A program made the translations under genes and the position numbers. Of a stretch of 39,297 nt of DNA, positions 31,812 to 39,297 are shown piece after piece; the first letter of the stretch is position 1, and the number at the start of each line of letters is the position of its first letter. The stretch spans positions 1 through 39,297 of the forward strand of contig DAOSAR010000002.1 in the NCBI GenBank assembly GCA_035360455.1, given 5' to 3'. The notes under the pieces were generated by a model. The model searched no databases and was not told where the DNA came from. It worked only from the letters and a program-made list of their open reading frames with translations. The stretch is from Candidatus Pacearchaeota archaeon (GTDB lineage Bacteria; Patescibacteriota; Minisyncoccia; Minisyncoccales; GCA-002788555).

Positions 31812-31884
31812 TGCCGGAGTAACTCAGTGGCAGAGTAGCTGTTTCGTAAACAGCAAGTCGTGGGTTCAACTCCCACCTCCGGCT
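31812..31884 (+). tRNA. tRNA-Thr (anticodon CGU) with an irregular T arm
   Basis: Acceptor GCCGGAG/CTCCGGC, D arm ACTC..GAGT, anticodon stem GCTGT/ACAGC with loop TTCGTAA. The T arm GT(T)GGG-TTCAACT-CCCAC needs a bulged U or a 6-nt variable loop. Confidence 0.8.
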
Positions 31885-31949: not shown

Positions 31950-32687
31950 ATGGCTGAGGAAAATAATGTTTCAGTTTATGATGATAAAAATGCTTTTCTT
32001 TCAATTTATGCTGGAACCGGAGGAAAAGATGCTGAAGATTGGGTAACTATTTTAGCTCGAATGTATCAGCGATATCTTCAAAAAAAAGGATTTAAAATAA
32101 AAGAGATTCAAAAAATATTAGGAGAAGGAGGAATTAAATCGGTTACTTACGAAATAAAAGGAAAAGGAGCTTTCGGGCTTTTAAAAAGAGAAAATGGAGT
32201 TCACCGACTAGTAAGGATTTCACCTTTTTCGGCAAAAAAGCTTCGTCACACTTCATTTGCTTTAGTAGAAGTTTTGCCAGAAATAGATGAAAAGGAAATT
32301 AACTTAAAAGATGAAGATTTAAAAATAGAAACATTTAGGGCTTCTGGAGCTGGAGGGCAATATGTTAATAGGCGAGAATCAGCGGTAAGAATAACTCATA
32401 TTCCAACTGGCTTAAGCGTATCATGTCAATCAGAAAGATTGCAAGGCGAAAATAAAAAAAGAGCTTTGCAAATATTGCAAGCAAAGGTAATTCAATATCA
32501 ACAGGAAAACAAGAAAAAAGAAGCCATTGAAGCACGTGGAGAATTGCCTATCGCTGATTGGGGAAGGCAGATTAGATCTTATGTTTTTCAACCTTATCAG
32601 ATGGTTAAAGATCACCGAACAGGAGTAAAAACTTCAAATTTAAAAGAAGTTTTAGATGGAGACTTGAATCTATTTATTAAAAAATAA
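31950..32687 (+). CDS. prfB: Peptide chain release factor 2 lacking N-terminal domain 1
   Basis: SPF motif (RLVRISPFSAKKLRHTSF) and GGQ motif (FRASGAGGQYVNRRESAVRITHIPTG). The protein is 245 aa and starts at the equivalent of about residue 115 of E. coli RF2. Confidence 0.85.
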   Translation: MAEENNVSVYDDKNAFLSIYAGTGGKDAEDWVTILARMYQRYLQKKGFKIKEIQKILGEGGIKSVTYEIKGKGAFGLLKRENGVHRLVRISPFSAKKLRHTSFALVEVLPEIDEKEINLKDEDLKIETFRASGAGGQYVNRRESAVRITHIPTGLSVSCQSERLQGENKKRALQILQAKVIQYQQENKKKEAIEARGELPIADWGRQIRSYVFQPYQMVKDHRTGVKTSNLKEVLDGDLNLFIKK

Positions 32688-34793: not shown

Positions 34794-35246
34794 TTACAGT
34801 GGTAAATCTTTTACATCTATTTCTTCTTCCTCTATCGTTGGAATATCTTCTTCTTTAATTTCCGGTTTTGGCTTTTTAGACTCAGGATTTTCTCTTAATT
34901 GAGAATTAGAGGAAGATTGATTTTTAGGCCCTAGTTGCAAACTTTCTACTATTATTTCTGTTCTATATTTTTTAATTCCATCTTTGTCTTGCCAATTTCT
35001 TGTTTGAAGTCGTCCTTCAATTAAAACTAGCGATCCTTGTTTTAAATATTGAGTTGCAGTTTCAGCTAATTTTCCAAAAGCAACCACATTATGAAATTCT
35101 GTTTGTTCTTGTTTTTCTCTGTTTTTATCATAAAATATTCGATTAGTAGCTACTCCAAAATTAGTAACTGTTTGACCAGAGGGAAGAGATTTTATTTGTG
35201 GGTCTTGAGTAACCCGTCCTAAAATAAAAACTTTATTCAAATTCAT
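34794..35246 (-). CDS. ssb: Single-stranded DNA-binding protein
   Basis: MNLNKVFILGRVTQDPQIKSLPSGQTVTNFGVATNR... is an OB fold, and the tail is acidic. The track's TTG start at 35285 runs into a GC-rich hairpin and is rejected. Confidence 0.88.
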   Translation of the reverse strand: MNLNKVFILGRVTQDPQIKSLPSGQTVTNFGVATNRIFYDKNREKQEQTEFHNVVAFGKLAETATQYLKQGSLVLIEGRLQTRNWQDKDGIKKYRTEIIVESLQLGPKNQSSSNSQLRENPESKKPKPEIKEEDIPTIEEEEIDVKDLPL

Positions 35247-35447
35247 ATACGCGAGCCCCGCTCCGCAGAGCGGAGCGAAGTTCAATGAATTAAATATTCA
35301 TTTCACCGAGCTCACTACGTTCGCTCGAGCGTGGAGATGAAGGTAAACTCCGGCCCCTCACCCTCCTCGAAGAAGGTGAGGGGAAAGGGCGAAGACAAAA
35401 ACAAAGTTTTTGTGGAGCCCTGAAGGAGGTAAACTTCATCGACTTAT
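35247..35447 (-). other. GC-rich multi-hairpin spacer of about 200 nt inside the rpsF-ssb-rpsR operon (candidate structured RNA)
   Basis: Plus-strand hairpins are CGCTCCGC-aga-GCGGAGCG, AATGAAT-taaat-ATTCATT, CGAGC...GCTCG, CCCCTCACC-ctcctcgaagaa-GGTGAGGGG and ACAAAAAC-aaa-GTTTTTGT. An outer pair GATGAAG...CTTCATC is also present. There is no ORF. Confidence 0.35.
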
Positions 35448-35855
35448 TTATTTAAGTAATTCGTCTAATTTTTTATCTAATTCTTCAATTTTAACTTTTT
35501 CTTTTTTAACTTTTTTCTTAGTTTCTTCTAAGAATGGTTTTCGTCTTATTTTTTTAGGATGAGCTTCTTTTTCTTTCTTTTCTTTTTTCTCAAGAAGTGT
35601 TCTTAAAATATTTCCTTCCATTTTTAAGAATTGAGAAAGTTCTTTTATCTTTTCGGGTTCCATTTCAAAAATTATTACTCCTAAAAATCCTTCTAAATGT
35701 TTTTTTACAGGATAAGCAAAAATTTTCTTTTCAATGAATTGTTCTTCAATCTTGCCATTTAATTTTTTAATTTCATCATTGATTTTTTTTAAAAATTTCT
35801 CTCTTTCTCTTATTTCTAAATTTGGAGTTAAAAAAGCTAATTCGTAGTAAAACAT
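35448..35855 (-). CDS. rpsF: 30S ribosomal protein S6 with a Lys-rich C-terminal extension
   Basis: MFYYELAFLTPNLEIRERE...FAYPVKKHLEGF is the bS6 pattern. The start was moved from the track's 35903 to the ATG at 35855. Confidence 0.85.
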   Translation of the reverse strand: MFYYELAFLTPNLEIREREKFLKKINDEIKKLNGKIEEQFIEKKIFAYPVKKHLEGFLGVIIFEMEPEKIKELSQFLKMEGNILRTLLEKKEKKEKEAHPKKIRRKPFLEETKKKVKKEKVKIEELDKKLDELLK

Positions 35856-36062
35856 ATATTTTATAAGCGACACTAATATTACGAATTTATTCGAATTTAC
35901 CATTATATTTGTTCATATCGTAAGTTGGCGTCAGTTAATTTTTATTATAGCAAAGAGAGATAAATTTATCAAGAGAACTTTAAAAAGAAAAAAAATAGAG
36001 TTTTTTAAGAATATAATTGTTGAAATTTTGAAAGAAAAGTTTAAACAAGAAATTTTTATTTT

Positions 36063-36110: not shown

Positions 36111-39100
36111 ATGGAATTTAACTTACCAAAAGAAGAGAAAAAAATTCTTAATTTCTGGGAAGAGGAGAAAATTTTTCAAAGCAGCCTTCAGAAGACAAAA
36201 GGAAAACCTAATTTTGTTTTTTATGAAGGACCTCCTGGAGCAAATGGGAGGCCTGGCCTTCATCATATTTTATCGCGCAGCTATAAAGATATTATTTGTC
36301 GCTATAAAACGATGAAAGGTTTTTATGTTGAAAGAAGAGCTGGTTGGGATACTCATGGTTTACCGGTAGAGTTAGAAGTTGAAAAACAGCTTCAAATTAA
36401 AACAAAGCAAGACATTGAAAAATTTGGAATTGATAAATTCATTGAAAACTGTCAAAACCTTGTTTGGCGTTACAAAGCAGAATGGGAAAAAGTGACCGAA
36501 GAAATTGGTTTTTGGCTTGATTTTGAAAATGCCTATATTACTTATGACCCACTTTATATTGAAAGTTTGTGGTACATAATAAAAGAAATTTACAAGAAAG
36601 GACTTTTGTATGAAGATAAAAAAGCCGTTCCTTGGTGTCCACGATGTCAAACTTCTTTATCATCTCATGAGGTTGCTTTAGGATATCAAAAAGTAAAAGA
36701 TCGAGCAATTTATGTAAAATTTCAAATTGCCGAACCTTGTGAAGCAAGGCGAGACGTGAAAAGAGGTAAAATCTCATTGAATTCCAAGTTTCAATTTTTA
36801 AATACTTATTTTCTTGCTTGGACGACCACTCCTTGGACCTTACCAGGAAATATGGCCTTAGCAGTAAATCCTGATATTGATTATGTATTAGTTGAAGCGG
36901 ACTTACTCGGATTAGCGAAAAAGAATAAAGATCAATATATCTTAGCTAAATCAAGATTAAAAGAAATTTTTCAGGAAAATGACTATAAAATTCTTAAAGA
37001 ATTAAAAGGTAAAGAGTTAATTGGTTTAGAATATAAACCACCTTATCCTACGCCTGATATTAAAAATCAATCAGCAAATATTTATCACGTTGTGGCTGGT
37101 AACTTTGTTTCTACAGAAGAAGGAACAGGAATTGTTCATATTTCCCCTGCTTTTGGAGAAGATGATTTTAGAGTAGGAAAAGAAAATAATTTATCTCCAT
37201 TGGTAACTGTAAATGAAGATGGCACAATGAAAAAAGGAGTTATTGGAGAGGGAAAATTTATTAAAGAAGCAGAACCAATAATTATTGAAGAATTAAAAAA
37301 ACGGAATTTGATTTTTAAAGAAGAGTTGTACGAACATGATTATCCGTTTTGCTGGCGTTGTAAAACTCCACTTTTGTATTACTTACACACATCTTGGTTT
37401 TTTGCCATAGAAAAGATTAAAGAAAAATTAATTCAAAATAATCAAAAAGTAAATTGGATTCCTCCTTATATAAAGAAAGGAAGATTTGGTAAATGGTTAG
37501 AAGAAGGCAGAGATTGGAATTTTTCTCGAGAAAGATATTGGGGAACACCCTTGCCAATCTGGAAATGCAAAAATTGTCAAAAAGTTGAATTAATTGGTTC
37601 AAGAGAAGATTTAAGAAAAGAAAAATTTTCCACTAATAGATATTTTATCTTAAGACACGGATTAGCAAAGCAAAATATTAATGGAATAGTAAATTCTTCT
37701 CCGGAGGAAAATTTTCCCTTAACCCAAAAAGGAAAATCTCAAGCTAAAAAAGCTGTTTTAAAATTAAAAAAATTATTAGACTCGTCTTGTCAAAGCCCTC
37801 GGCGTAACACAGGCAAAGAAAAATTAGATATTATTTTTTCTTCCGATCTTCAAAGATGCAAAGAAACAGCAGAAATTATTTCTAATGAATTAGGAGCTAA
37901 AATTATTTTTTCTTCAGAACTTCGAGACCTAAATTTTGGAGAGTATAATGGTAAGAGCATTATGCAATATAGAAAAGATTTTCCTTATGACCTTTCAAGA
38001 TTTCAAAAACGTTTGCCTGGCGGAGAAAGTTGGAATGATTGTAAAAAAAGAATGATAAAATTTATAGAAAAAATCGAAAAAAAATACCAAAATAAAAATA
38101 TTTTAATTATTAGTCATGGCGATCCTTTATGGCTGTTGGAAGGAGCGATGAAGGGATTAACTAATGAAGAAATACTAAATTCAAGAAAAAAAATGATAGA
38201 CAAAGGAGAATTAAGAGAAATTGAGTTTAAAAAATTTCCCTATAATAAAAAAGGAGAACTTGATTTCCACCGGCCTTTTGTTGATGAAATAAATTTTTAT
38301 TGTCCGTATTGTCAAAAAGAAAAAATGCAAAGAGTGAAAGAGGTTGGTGATGTTTGGTTTGATTCCGGCGCGATGCCCTTTGGTCAAGCTCATTGGCCAT
38401 TTAGTCAACCCAAAAGTCAAAGATTAAAACCACCAGAATTATTCCCTGCAGATTTTATTTGTGAAGGAGTAGATCAAACAAGAGGGTGGTTTTACACATT
38501 ATTAGCAGTTTCTTCACTCCTCTTAGGATTTCCCGCTCCGTATAAAAATGTTTTAGTTTTAGGTTTGCTTCTTGATAAGGAAGGCAAAAAGATGTCGAAA
38601 TCAAGGGGAAATGCAGTTTTTCCAGAAGAAATGATTCAAAAATATGGAGCTGACACTATCCGATTTTACTTTTTTACAATTAACCAGCCATGGGAGTCAA
38701 AAAAATTTGATGAAAAAGATTTAAGAAAAACCTATAATCGCTTTATTTTAACAATCGAAAATTTACTTAACTTTCTTTTAACTTATACAAATACAAAAAC
38801 AAAAAAGCTAAAAACTGTTTCTTTAAAGAAAGAAATTTTAGATAACTGGATTTTATCAAAAATAGAAAATTTAAAGAAAGAAATAGATGATCTTTTATCT
38901 AATTATAAAATAGTTGAAGCTGCAAGATTAATCGAAAAATTTACTATCGAAGATCTCTCCAATTGGTATTTAAGAAGATCAAGATATCGGCTAAAGAAGG
39001 GTGATAAAAACGCTATTGCTACGTTTAGTTATGTGCTCTTTAATCTTTCCTTAATCTTAGCTCCATTTACTCCATTTTTAAGTGAGGAAGTCTATCAAAA

Positions 39101-39297
39101 AGTTACGGGATCAAATTTCAAAAGTAAAAAATCAGTTCATTTAGAAAAGTTTCCTGAAGTAAGAAAAGATTTTATTAATAAGGAATTAGAAGAAAAGATG
39201 GGAAAAACAAGAGAAATTATTACCCTGGGACTTTCTGAGAGAAAAAAAGCAGGAATAAAAGTAAGACAACCAATCGCTTCGCTTAAAATTAAAAATC
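36111..39297 (+). CDS. ileS: Isoleucyl-tRNA synthetase (type 2-like), 3'-truncated by the window end
   Basis: It is not in the ORF track because it has no stop in the window. My own translation gives MEFNLPKEEKKILNFWEEEKIF...YEGPPGANGRPGLHHILSRSYKD...AGWDTHGLPVELEVEK...WTTTPWTLPGN...GTGIVHISPAFGEDD...RERYWGTPLPIWKCKNC...DVWFDSGAMPF...GVDQTRGWFYTLL...KMSKSRGN. The absence of any plus-strand ORF fragment of 60 aa or more in the track here is consistent with one continuous frame. Confidence 0.93.
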   Translation, partial: MEFNLPKEEKKILNFWEEEKIFQSSLQKTKGKPNFVFYEGPPGANGRPGLHHILSRSYKDIICRYKTMKGFYVERRAGWDTHGLPVELEVEKQLQIKTKQDIEKFGIDKFIENCQNLVWRYKAEWEKVTEEIGFWLDFENAYITYDPLYIESLWYIIKEIYKKGLLYEDKKAVPWCPRCQTSLSSHEVALGYQKVKDRAIYVKFQIAEPCEARRDVKRGKISLNSKFQFLNTYFLAWTTTPWTLPGNMALAVNPDIDYVLVEADLLGLAKKNKDQYILAKSRLKEIFQENDYKILKELKGKELIGLEYKPPYPTPDIKNQSANIYHVVAGNFVSTEEGTGIVHISPAFGEDDFRVGKENNLSPLVTVNEDGTMKKGVIGEGKFIKEAEPIIIEELKKRNLIFKEELYEHDYPFCWRCKTPLLYYLHTSWFFAIEKIKEKLIQNNQKVNWIPPYIKKGRFGKWLEEGRDWNFSRERYWGTPLPIWKCKNCQKVELIGSREDLRKEKFSTNRYFILRHGLAKQNINGIVNSSPEENFPLTQKGKSQAKKAVLKLKKLLDSSCQSPRRNTGKEKLDIIFSSDLQRCKETAEIISNELGAKIIFSSELRDLNFGEYNGKSIMQYRKDFPYDLSRFQKRLPGGESWNDCKKRMIKFIEKIEKKYQNKNILIISHGDPLWLLEGAMKGLTNEEILNSRKKMIDKGELREIEFKKFPYNKKGELDFHRPFVDEINFYCPYCQKEKMQRVKEVGDVWFDSGAMPFGQAHWPFSQPKSQRLKPPELFPADFICEGVDQTRGWFYTLLAVSSLLLGFPAPYKNVLVLGLLLDKEGKKMSKSRGNAVFPEEMIQKYGADTIRFYFFTINQPWESKKFDEKDLRKTYNRFILTIENLLNFLLTYTNTKTKKLKTVSLKKEILDNWILSKIENLKKEIDDLLSNYKIVEAARLIEKFTIEDLSNWYLRRSRYRLKKGDKNAIATFSYVLFNLSLILAPFTPFLSEEVYQKVTGSNFKSKKSVHLEKFPEVRKDFINKELEEKMGKTREIITLGLSERKKAGIKVRQPIASLKIKN
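36720..36802 (+). repeat. In-frame tract of about 83 nt shared with gatA (21573..21655)
   Basis: See the gatA copy. The tract lies in the variable loop between YVKF and WTTTPWTLP. Confidence 0.8.
37638..38180 (+). other. Histidine-phosphatase (PGAM-like) domain inserted within IleRS
   Basis: RYFILRHGLAKQN (RHG), IIFSSDLQRCKETAE, ELRDLNFGEYNG, LPGGESWNDCKKR and ILIISHGDPLWLL (second His). The domain is in frame between ...ELIGSREDL and ELDFHRPFVDE..., which are only about a dozen residues apart in the T. thermophilus IleRS as I remember it. Confidence 0.75.

Follow-up and report, generated by a model that had tools for sequence, protein, structure and literature searches.

The stretch of DNA analyzed here, referred to as the window, comprises 39,297 nucleotides of contig DAOSAR010000002.1 (assembly GCA_035360455.1, Candidatus Pacearchaeota archaeon, assigned by GTDB to the Patescibacteriota) and ends within ileS, the gene for an isoleucyl-tRNA synthetase (IleRS) that accommodates a histidine phosphatase domain in frame. 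Between position 36111 and the window edge, 1062 codons were read as a single open frame with neither stops nor frameshifts, in agreement with a first-pass annotation made from the sequence alone. Pfam analysis of the whole window protein revealed a tRNA-synt_1 match split in two around PF00300 (His_Phos_1, amino acids (aa) 512-691, E = 4.3e-32, 111.8 bits versus a gathering cut-off of 21.7). The segment 37614-38255, in which the annotation had located the phosphatase, was also run alone against this hidden Markov model and matched it with E = 2.9e-34 and 118.9 bits, confirming the in-frame domain. All motifs quoted in its support were recovered, namely RHG, SSDLQR, GGESW and SHGDP within the domain and CKNC and CPYC in its flanks.

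The boundaries of the insert were determined, as had been suggested, by alignment to a type-2 IleRS reference (PDB entry 8c8w). The two alignment blocks paired aa 7-503 with chain residues 12-476 and aa 715-1059 with chain residues 484-821, which places the insert between aa 503 and 715. At this position the window protein has approximately 205 residues versus approximately 7 in 8c8w and 8-15 in insert-free relatives; the CP3 loop of the IleRS2 references spans approximately 7-15 residues, whereas that of the window holds an enzyme domain. This comparison, made with 8c8w and the insert-free relatives, is in line with the annotated figure of about 210 extra residues; for the Thermus enzyme, a spacing of 12-15 residues had been given there. 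The insert sits between CKNC and CPYC in the middle of the CP3 subdomain, which in the Candida albicans IleRS structure joins CP2 to the second half of the Rossmann fold (PMC7191050). CP3 topology differs in each solved IleRS, and among these only the Thermus enzyme has a zinc motif (PMC7191050); a zinc-type CP3 is common to the Thermus and the window IleRS. In the set of 130 fusions used throughout (the window and 129 retrieved sequences, only 35-48% identical to the window), the CP3 CxxC cysteines are kept in only 87-93 members, consistent with the reported variability of CP3 (PMC7191050).

The junctions of the window protein read ...KFSTN/RYFILRHG and ...PYNKKGELD/FHRP (slashes mark the borders). 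In the CP3 form, the N-terminal junction has a fixed position, W484 and R515 being 30 or 31 residues apart in 104 of the 130 sequences. On the return side, the motif hP[YH][ND]xxxE.D.HRP is common to the fusions and occurs also in a relative whose CP3 has no insert (P0264), so that the motif belongs to native CP3. The insert has a GC content of approximately 0.30, the same as its flanks, and aligns end to end with complete free-standing proteins of approximately 190 aa, from MKN-YFILRHG to GELRELK. One surface loop of the phosphatase contains a private in-frame insertion of 33 nt with approximately 50% GC in a gene of 30% GC; it was found neither in the closest relatives L001 and L003 nor in any other homologue, and an AlphaFold2 (AF2) model predicts disorder in the loop, with a pLDDT below 50 at aa 563-567.

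The host protein is a type-2 (eukaryote-like) IleRS. It scored 890 bits with the NCBIfam model for ileS (TIGR00392, cut-off 621), and PDB profile matches gave E = 2e-228 for 8c8w and 2e-225 for Thermus thermophilus 1ile on the IleRS2 side versus 6e-105 for 8c9f and 7e-96 for Staphylococcus aureus 1ffy on the IleRS1 side. Foldseek analysis yielded the same order, with IleRS2-type structures above IleRS1. Approximately 90-140 C-terminal residues lie beyond the window, corresponding to the IleRS2-type C-terminal domain DUF5915 (Pfam) that is present in full-length relatives; the last residue encoded in the window, 1062, precedes it. Motifs shared with the enzymes of Priestia megaterium (8C8U/8C8V/8C8W) and T. 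thermophilus (1ILE), namely HIGH-type, KMSKS and editing motifs, are all present and give the synthetase a functional-looking core. Its HIGH signature has the altered form GLHH. At this position, GxHH was found in 27 of 58 full-length fusions, with HxGH in the remainder, and in all seven insert-free relatives that could be scored. PDB entry 8c8w, the title of which describes a mupirocin hyper-resistant HIGH-motif mutant of IleRS2, carries GVHH. The NCBIfam exception models for acquired mupirocin resistance, MupA and MupB, matched the window protein with 771 and 785 bits, below their cut-off of 1900. The features of the gene and of the insert are compiled in Table 1.

Table 1. Positions of ileS, its sequence signatures and the inserted phosphatase in the window
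Feature	Residues (aa)	Window positions	Strand	Basis or remark
ileS, type-2 IleRS		36111..39297	+	Open frame, TIGR00392, PDB matches; gene continues past window end
HIGH signature, altered form G-L-H-H	49-52	36255..36266	+	Sequence comparison
CP1 editing signatures WTTTPWT and GTGIVH	237-243 and 338-343	36819..37139	+	Invariant columns in 58-sequence alignment
First CxxC pair CKNC, CP3 zinc knuckle	486-489	37566..37577	+	N-terminal side of insert
Inserted histidine phosphatase domain	508-703	37632..38219	+	Pfam PF00300, alignment with free-standing homologues, AF2
Catalytic Arg515-His516, RHG motif	515-517 (motif)	37653..37658	+	His516 is the phospho-accepting histidine
Private 33-nt GC-rich in-frame insertion, phosphatase surface loop	within 555-570	37779..37811	+	
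Arg582, second phosphate-binding arginine, SSDLQR	577-582 (motif)	37854..37856	+	
Glu639, general acid/base, GGESW	637-641 (motif)	38025..38027	+	
His669, second catalytic histidine, SHGDP	668-672 (motif)	38115..38117	+	
Return linker and restart of CP3, FKKFPYNKKGELD-FHRPFVD	706-725	38226..38285	+	Motif comparison
Second CxxC pair CPYC, CP3 zinc knuckle	731-734	38301..38312	+	
KMSKS signature	827-831	38589..38603	+	
Anticodon-binding domain	911-1056	38841..39278	+	Pfam PF08264, E = 5.7e-31

Identity and integrity of the inserted domain

By both its score and its catalytic core, the inserted domain is assigned to branch 1 of the histidine phosphatase superfamily. Loss of the catalytic residues in a proper alignment, which the first-pass annotation had named as a possible outcome, was not observed: R515, H516, R582, E639 and H669 are all retained. 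Across the 130 fusions, R515, E639 and H669 are invariant (130/130 each), H516 and R582 occur in 129/130 each, and R647 in 128/130. The catalytic residues listed in Table 1 are thus kept in at least 129 of the 130 fusions, and together with a dN/dS of 0.15 that equals the value for the synthetase core (see below), their near-invariance rules out a degenerate spacer and supports the earlier impression of a catalytically competent domain. Judged from its sequence, the domain is complete, its catalytic set is intact, and it is apparently active.

When a profile of the inserts was compared with the PDB, the closest solved relatives over the near-full domain were PhoE (E = 3e-30), PspA (3e-29) and CobC (approximately 1e-25). 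The broad-specificity phosphatase PhoE from Geobacillus stearothermophilus (1EBB, 1H2E), the phosphoserine phosphatase PspA (4IJ5) and the alpha-ribazole-5'-phosphate phosphatase CobC (6NRU, 6E4B) belong to the same fold family, have approximately 190-210 aa and share the RHG motif, arginine, glutamate and histidine with the insert (E-values of 3e-30 to 2e-24 over nearly the whole domain). They differ in being free-standing enzymes with small-molecule substrates, whereas the phosphatase studied here is inserted in, or operon-coupled to, IleRS. The description "PGAM-like" in the first-pass annotation was correct with regard to the superfamily but not to a mutase. The models for mutases (dPGM) remained far below their cut-offs (dPGM_arch, 94.8 versus 225 bits; TIGR01258, 31.4 versus 81.7; GpmB, 56 versus 261), solved dPGMs aligned only to positions of approximately 12-120 of the insert profile, i.e. 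its N-terminal half, and the domain of approximately 195 aa is too short for the full-length match of approximately 250 aa expected for a dPGM. The insert is therefore classified, on sequence grounds, as a short phosphatase of the PhoE/PspA/CobC type. The equivalog models for CobC (TIGR03162, 83.6 versus 162.9 bits) and PspA (57.8 versus 350 bits) also scored below their cut-offs, and the free-standing operon form described below gave the same pattern. As the scores lie under every NCBIfam equivalog cut-off, no substrate assignment can be transferred to the insert.

The insert also matched NF005567, the model for bifunctional RNase H/acid phosphatase of the Rv2228c type, in its phosphatase half (83 bits, profile positions 177-331, cut-off 326). 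In this case, a CobC-like histidine phosphatase is likewise joined to a nucleic-acid enzyme, but the fusion is end to end and the partner is RNase H, in contrast to the internal insertion in IleRS. Comparison with the PDB relatives and of net charge revealed no family-specific feature indicative of RNA or protein substrates.

Structure prediction by AF2 with a 58-sequence alignment gave a mean pLDDT of 90.7 and a pTM of 0.88, with values of 93-97 for the insert except in its private loop. The model superimposed on solved IleRS structures with TM scores of 0.72-0.91, and a Foldseek search with the whole model retrieved IleRS matches only. According to the model, the inserted phosphatase is predicted to fold as a separate globular domain while the IleRS fold is kept.

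Distribution, selection and genetic arrangement

An exhaustive HMMER search of 1.84 billion cluster representatives with the insert and 60-residue flanks as query returned IleRS or IleRS fragments for all of the best 150 matches. At least 129 protein clusters (50% identity) besides the window span flank, insert and flank in one stretch. A scan with one genome per GTDB species yielded 80 loci, every one from Patescibacteria (Paceibacteria), with representatives of Nealson-, Colwell-, Jorgensen-, Portnoy-, Staskawicz-, Nomura-, Kaiser-, Campbell- and Harrisonbacteria, Minisyncoccales and Paceibacterota. Complete single-ORF (open reading frame) fusions of 1137-1359 aa were present in 33 species-representative genomes, one of them closed (689-kb Nealsonbacteria chromosome CP179887.1, ORF at L006:2570-6079). 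The survey of related genomes proposed in the first-pass annotation has shown the same insertion to be widespread, with all cases in Patescibacteria. Finding the same junctions in independent assemblies excludes a chimeric assembly as far as sequence data allow.

Comparison of the window with its closest relative L003 gave dN/dS values of 0.15 (insert) and of 0.15 and 0.13 (the two parts of IleRS), which are approximate because dS is near saturation. By this measure, purifying selection acts on the insert as strongly as on the synthetase core. Inspection of the junctions in the window and of their equivalents across the 130 fusions revealed no intein junction residues (N-terminal Cys/Ser; C-terminal His-Asn followed by Cys/Ser/Thr), and a Pfam scan of the window protein found no intein or homing-endonuclease family; together these results rule out an intein. 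The insert-bearing ileS of two relatives is split over several ORFs (L001:176-2582, on a contig with 1.17x coverage, and L002:1-1881, from a Nealsonbacteria metagenome-assembled genome, with a stop after the HYPFEN motif). These breaks are probably sequencing frameshifts, the alternative being a genuinely split IleRS.

Public annotation describes the fusion proteins simply as isoleucine--tRNA ligase, and full-text literature searches retrieved no published synthetase carrying a histidine phosphatase. The literature searched thus bears out the first-pass annotation, which knew of no synthetase with a module of this type, but in public sequence data the architecture is common, and an IleRS with an extra enzymatic domain has already been curated (NF040702, ileS_w_GNAT, isoleucine--tRNA ligase, N-acetyltransferase domain-containing). 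The additional domain of this curated precedent is a GNAT domain and not a phosphatase; the window protein, in which Pfam detected no GNAT domain, scored 339 bits versus a cut-off of 1999 and is not a member. The existence of NF040702 makes an IleRS that hosts inserted enzymes a known kind. Both component families are known as well, and so are inserted domains in class Ia synthetases.

The phosphatase also occurs as a separate gene. By tblastn with the IleRS N-terminal part, the insert and the IleRS C-terminal part as separate queries, 82 loci were classed into 40 in-frame fusions and 42 free-standing phosphatase genes. An insert-free ileS lies directly downstream on the same strand in 35 of these 42 cases, and in 30 of the 42 the phosphatase stop and the ileS start are separated by -10 to +15 nt, the spacing expected for translationally coupled genes. 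The gene order is argS-phosphatase-ileS-...-recO for the separate form, with an equally tight gap between argS and the phosphatase gene, and argS-ileS(with insert)-...-recO for the fused form. A free-standing and an inserted copy were found together in no locus examined, and no leftover phosphatase copy was detected within 4 kb upstream of a fused ileS. From these arrangements, the same phosphatase appears to reach IleRS either as a co-translated neighbor or as a built-in domain.

Not all free-standing copies adjoin ileS: six or seven paralogues, which form an RHGKT subgroup, lie elsewhere (L046:2887-3480, L049:3983-4576, L051:3983-4579, L035, L041, L059). Three of them follow a gene that resembles a nucleotidyltransferase by its N-terminal sequence only (MSTKAIILAAGSS...). 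These contexts suggest a separate, paralogous function.

With regard to the window itself, no argS was found anywhere in the 39 kb, although argS directly precedes ileS or phosphatase-ileS in most relatives. The genes 5' of ileS are rpsF and ssb on the opposite strand (34794-35903 (-)). Further upstream, the release factor 2 (RF2) gene (31950-32687 (+)) encodes just 245 aa, which match positions 113-349 of the 353 positions of TIGR00020 with 349 bits, slightly below the cut-off of 370; the N-terminal domain 1 appears to be missing. The gap of 65 nt to the preceding tRNA-Thr gene (31813-31884) leaves no space for a frameshifted exon upstream of the RF2 gene.

Fused and separate forms have likely interconverted several times. 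On a neighbor-joining (NJ) tree of the IleRS N-terminal part, 5 fused/separate changes were counted versus a median of 24 with shuffled labels, indicating strong clustering. The number never fell below 5 in 200 bootstraps, and the phosphatase tree required at least 7 changes. A single origin of the insertion is accordingly not supported by these trees, although the result is suggestive only; as NJ is a crude method, multiple interconversions are likely but not proven. Some pairs of a fused and a separate IleRS are 67-69% identical, as close as to their own kind. Stronger evidence for independent recruitment than that from the NJ trees comes from the protein architectures. P0264 has an uninterrupted CP3 and a catalytically intact phosphatase at a second site (aa 733-899), between the KMSKS region and the anticodon-binding domain. 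One copy at each of the two sites is present in P0174, P0262 and P0237, and two tandem copies in CP3 were identified in P0221, P0226, P0204 and P0232. The insert could plausibly have arisen from the operon if phosphatase-ileS was duplicated in tandem and two in-frame deletions then occurred. A leftover upstream copy, which such a route predicts, was not seen within 4 kb.

Direct Pfam scans of the IleRS relatives mapped further domains, each of them rare in the set. A NUDIX domain is located in the CP1 region of P0235 (aa 226-343), GNAT acetyltransferase domains in P0269 (aa ~281-413) and P0152 (aa 935-1063), and weak HD phosphohydrolase matches near the C-terminus of the proteins encoded at L031:106-4110 and L061:2516-6595. 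P0152 additionally contains an IS200-like Y1 transposase segment within IleRS (aa 340-461). The GNAT and NUDIX variants represent one cluster each, and the phosphatase is by far the commonest inserted-enzyme variant of IleRS here.

Possible substrate and role of the IleRS-linked phosphatase

Taken together, the explanation that we favor, and to which we give somewhat better than even chances, is that of an intact phosphatase in CP3 that serves IleRS as a dedicated partner in Paceibacteria and acts as a phosphomonoesterase on an IleRS-linked substrate. Depending on the lineage, the phosphatase would be supplied as a coupled upstream gene, a CP3 insert, a tandem pair in CP3 or an insert at the second site. 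This variety of delivery modes suggests that selection keeps both activities together in space and in equal amounts, from which we infer the dedicated partnership. The domain would probably work as a phosphomonoesterase, via a phospho-His516 intermediate, on something that meets IleRS. The roles put forward in the first-pass annotation, i.e. hydrolysis of a by-product or of AppppA, repair of tRNA 2'/3'-phosphate ends, and a moonlighting activity, were offered there as speculation. Pure moonlighting loses some ground in view of the operon and of the multiple sites, which speak for a functional coupling of the phosphatase to IleRS. Repair of tRNA ends is, to some extent, indirectly supported.

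A blocking 2'/3'-phosphate on the acceptor end of a tRNA or on a nucleotide is our preferred substrate, a tentative choice that may well prove wrong. Removal of such a phosphate beside the synthetase would pass a chargeable 3'-OH end straight to the active site. In favor of this proposal, sister IleRS carry NUDIX and HD domains, which are (pyro)phosphate hydrolases, and the phosphatase clade turns up repeatedly beside nucleic-acid enzymes, as seen in its matches to CobC, a nucleotide-like phosphatase, and to the RNase H/acid phosphatase model in its phosphatase half. Precedents for a hydrolytic module within a tRNA-handling enzyme are the CP1 editing domain of class Ia synthetases, which corrects the substrate, and the HD domain in the CCA-adding enzyme of E. 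coli, whose activities as a phosphatase and 2',3'-cyclic phosphodiesterase have a proposed role in tRNA 3'-end repair. Both have folds and chemistry unrelated to those of the insert, and any likeness would be one of function only. Attacks on this end of the tRNA have been described for toxSAS enzymes, which inhibit by pyrophosphorylation of tRNA CCA ends and are sometimes tRNA-specific (10.1101/2021.04.30.441581; PMC11559606).

Several points weigh against our interpretation and against the specific substrate models in general. The closest characterized relatives are small-molecule phosphatases. Two structural papers (PMC7191050, PMC11685878) do not describe CP3 as a tRNA-contacting element; the paper on yeast IleRS with tRNA names it once as a domain and does not treat it as a tRNA contact (PMC11685878). 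General repair of tRNA ends does not obviously explain the choice of IleRS as host. In net charge, an uninformative proxy for RNA binding here, the inserted domain exceeds the basicity of the IleRS core by a small margin only. Finally, six or seven phosphatase paralogues reside in unrelated gene contexts, and gene order in small genomes can partly reflect ancestry and not function.

The last two points also bear on an unlikely alternative in which a housekeeping or metabolic phosphatase without any mechanistic link to aminoacylation first became caught in the argS-ileS operon and was subsequently taken up by an IleRS loop that accepts insertions, persisting there through tolerance of the loop and the convenience of co-expression. 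No other IleRS subdomain varies as much as CP3, which is therefore probably permissive (PMC7191050), reduced genomes often retain ancestral gene order, paralogues exist in other contexts, and the family displays none of the features sought as signs of an RNA or protein substrate. Such a passive history fits poorly with recruitment into IleRS at two sites and in one or two copies, with the repeated interconversion of fused and separate forms suggested by the NJ trees, and with stop and start codons that abut or overlap in 30 of 42 operon cases, the two forms being mutually exclusive per locus. IleRS was moreover the sole host seen, in searches that began from IleRS-flanked or insert queries and did not seek other hosts directly.

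Somewhat more doubtful is a small-molecule hydrolase tied to IleRS chemistry, which would act on a phosphorylated inhibitor or adenylate mimic, or on a by-product such as AMP, a dinucleotide-polyphosphate product or PPi. The nearest solved relatives PhoE, PspA and CobC, broad-specificity or nucleotide-like small-molecule phosphatases, are compatible with this proposal, as are the GNAT and NUDIX domains of sister IleRS and the NCBIfam IleRS-GNAT model. Known activities of such domains include the detoxification of aminoacyl-adenylate mimics by GNAT enzymes, e.g. MccE, and the hydrolysis of Ap4A by Nudix enzymes. The GxHH form of the HIGH signature, which the 8c8w entry ties to antibiotic hyper-resistance, occurs in about half of the family. 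Histidine phosphatases, however, cleave phosphomonoesters and not adenylate anhydride or phosphoramidate bonds, degradation of AMP would be wasteful where nucleotide synthesis is limited, and the GNAT and NUDIX variants amount to just one cluster each. To our knowledge, no phosphorylated natural IleRS inhibitor has been reported.

We consider it improbable that the domain is a built-in protein phosphatase that removes an inhibitory phosphate from IleRS itself, e.g. from a KMSKS-loop serine, and thereby reverses the attack of a HipA-like kinase toxin or forms part of a regulatory switch. We know of no report of IleRS phosphorylation in these bacteria. The idea draws on the kinases HipA and HipT, which inactivate the class I synthetases GltX and TrpS by phosphorylation (PMC6581861, PMC7029023), and a protector acting in cis would require phosphatase and IleRS in the 1:1 ratio that fusion or translational coupling provides. 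The histidine phosphatase superfamily also includes protein phosphatases, but the SixA match of the family is weak (27 bits) and far below its cut-off of 74.5. No kinase was found in the window or the conserved neighborhood, and the NUDIX and HD domains of sister IleRS do not fit protein dephosphorylation.

It is barely credible that the insert is an artefact of assembly (a chimera) or is inert, whether as a decaying spacer or as an intein or mobile insertion that the protein loses: although the Y1 transposase segment in P0152 and the frameshifted relatives L001 and L002 on low-coverage contigs could be cited for it, the same junctions recur in 129 other sequences and in 33 complete ORFs, one from a closed genome. 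The frame in the window has no stops or frameshifts, intein junction residues are absent, the catalytic residues are near-invariant, dN/dS is 0.15 and the fold is predicted with high confidence.

A wider reading of the dedicated IleRS partner, which we think unlikely to hold, is that of an "armored" synthetase, in which the patescibacterial IleRS scaffold repeatedly captures repair or counter-defense enzymes, mainly the phosphatase and in some lineages Nudix, HD or GNAT domains. The captured enzymes would undo attacks on tRNA-Ile or on IleRS, such as (pyro)phosphorylation of the 3'-end, phosphorylation of the synthetase or inhibitors that mimic the adenylate. If this holds true, the phosphatase would mark a dephosphorylation reaction that is linked to tRNA charging and has so far gone unrecognized.

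Few enzymes have been studied as thoroughly as the aminoacyl-tRNA synthetases, and work on their accessory domains has time and again uncovered new biology such as editing, regulation and signaling. For the partnership proposed here, natural experiments are available in the form of fused versus operon arrangements, one versus two copies, and the first versus the second insertion site, and sequences for structural and biochemical studies are plentiful. The annotation of these proteins as plain isoleucine--tRNA ligases hides the putative phosphatase activity from metabolic reconstructions of reduced genomes. The coupling of phosphatase and IleRS appears to be kept across much of Patescibacteria by several independent genetic solutions, which would imply that isoleucine charging, or the protection of it, includes an undescribed step that depends on phosphate and has no counterpart in model organisms.

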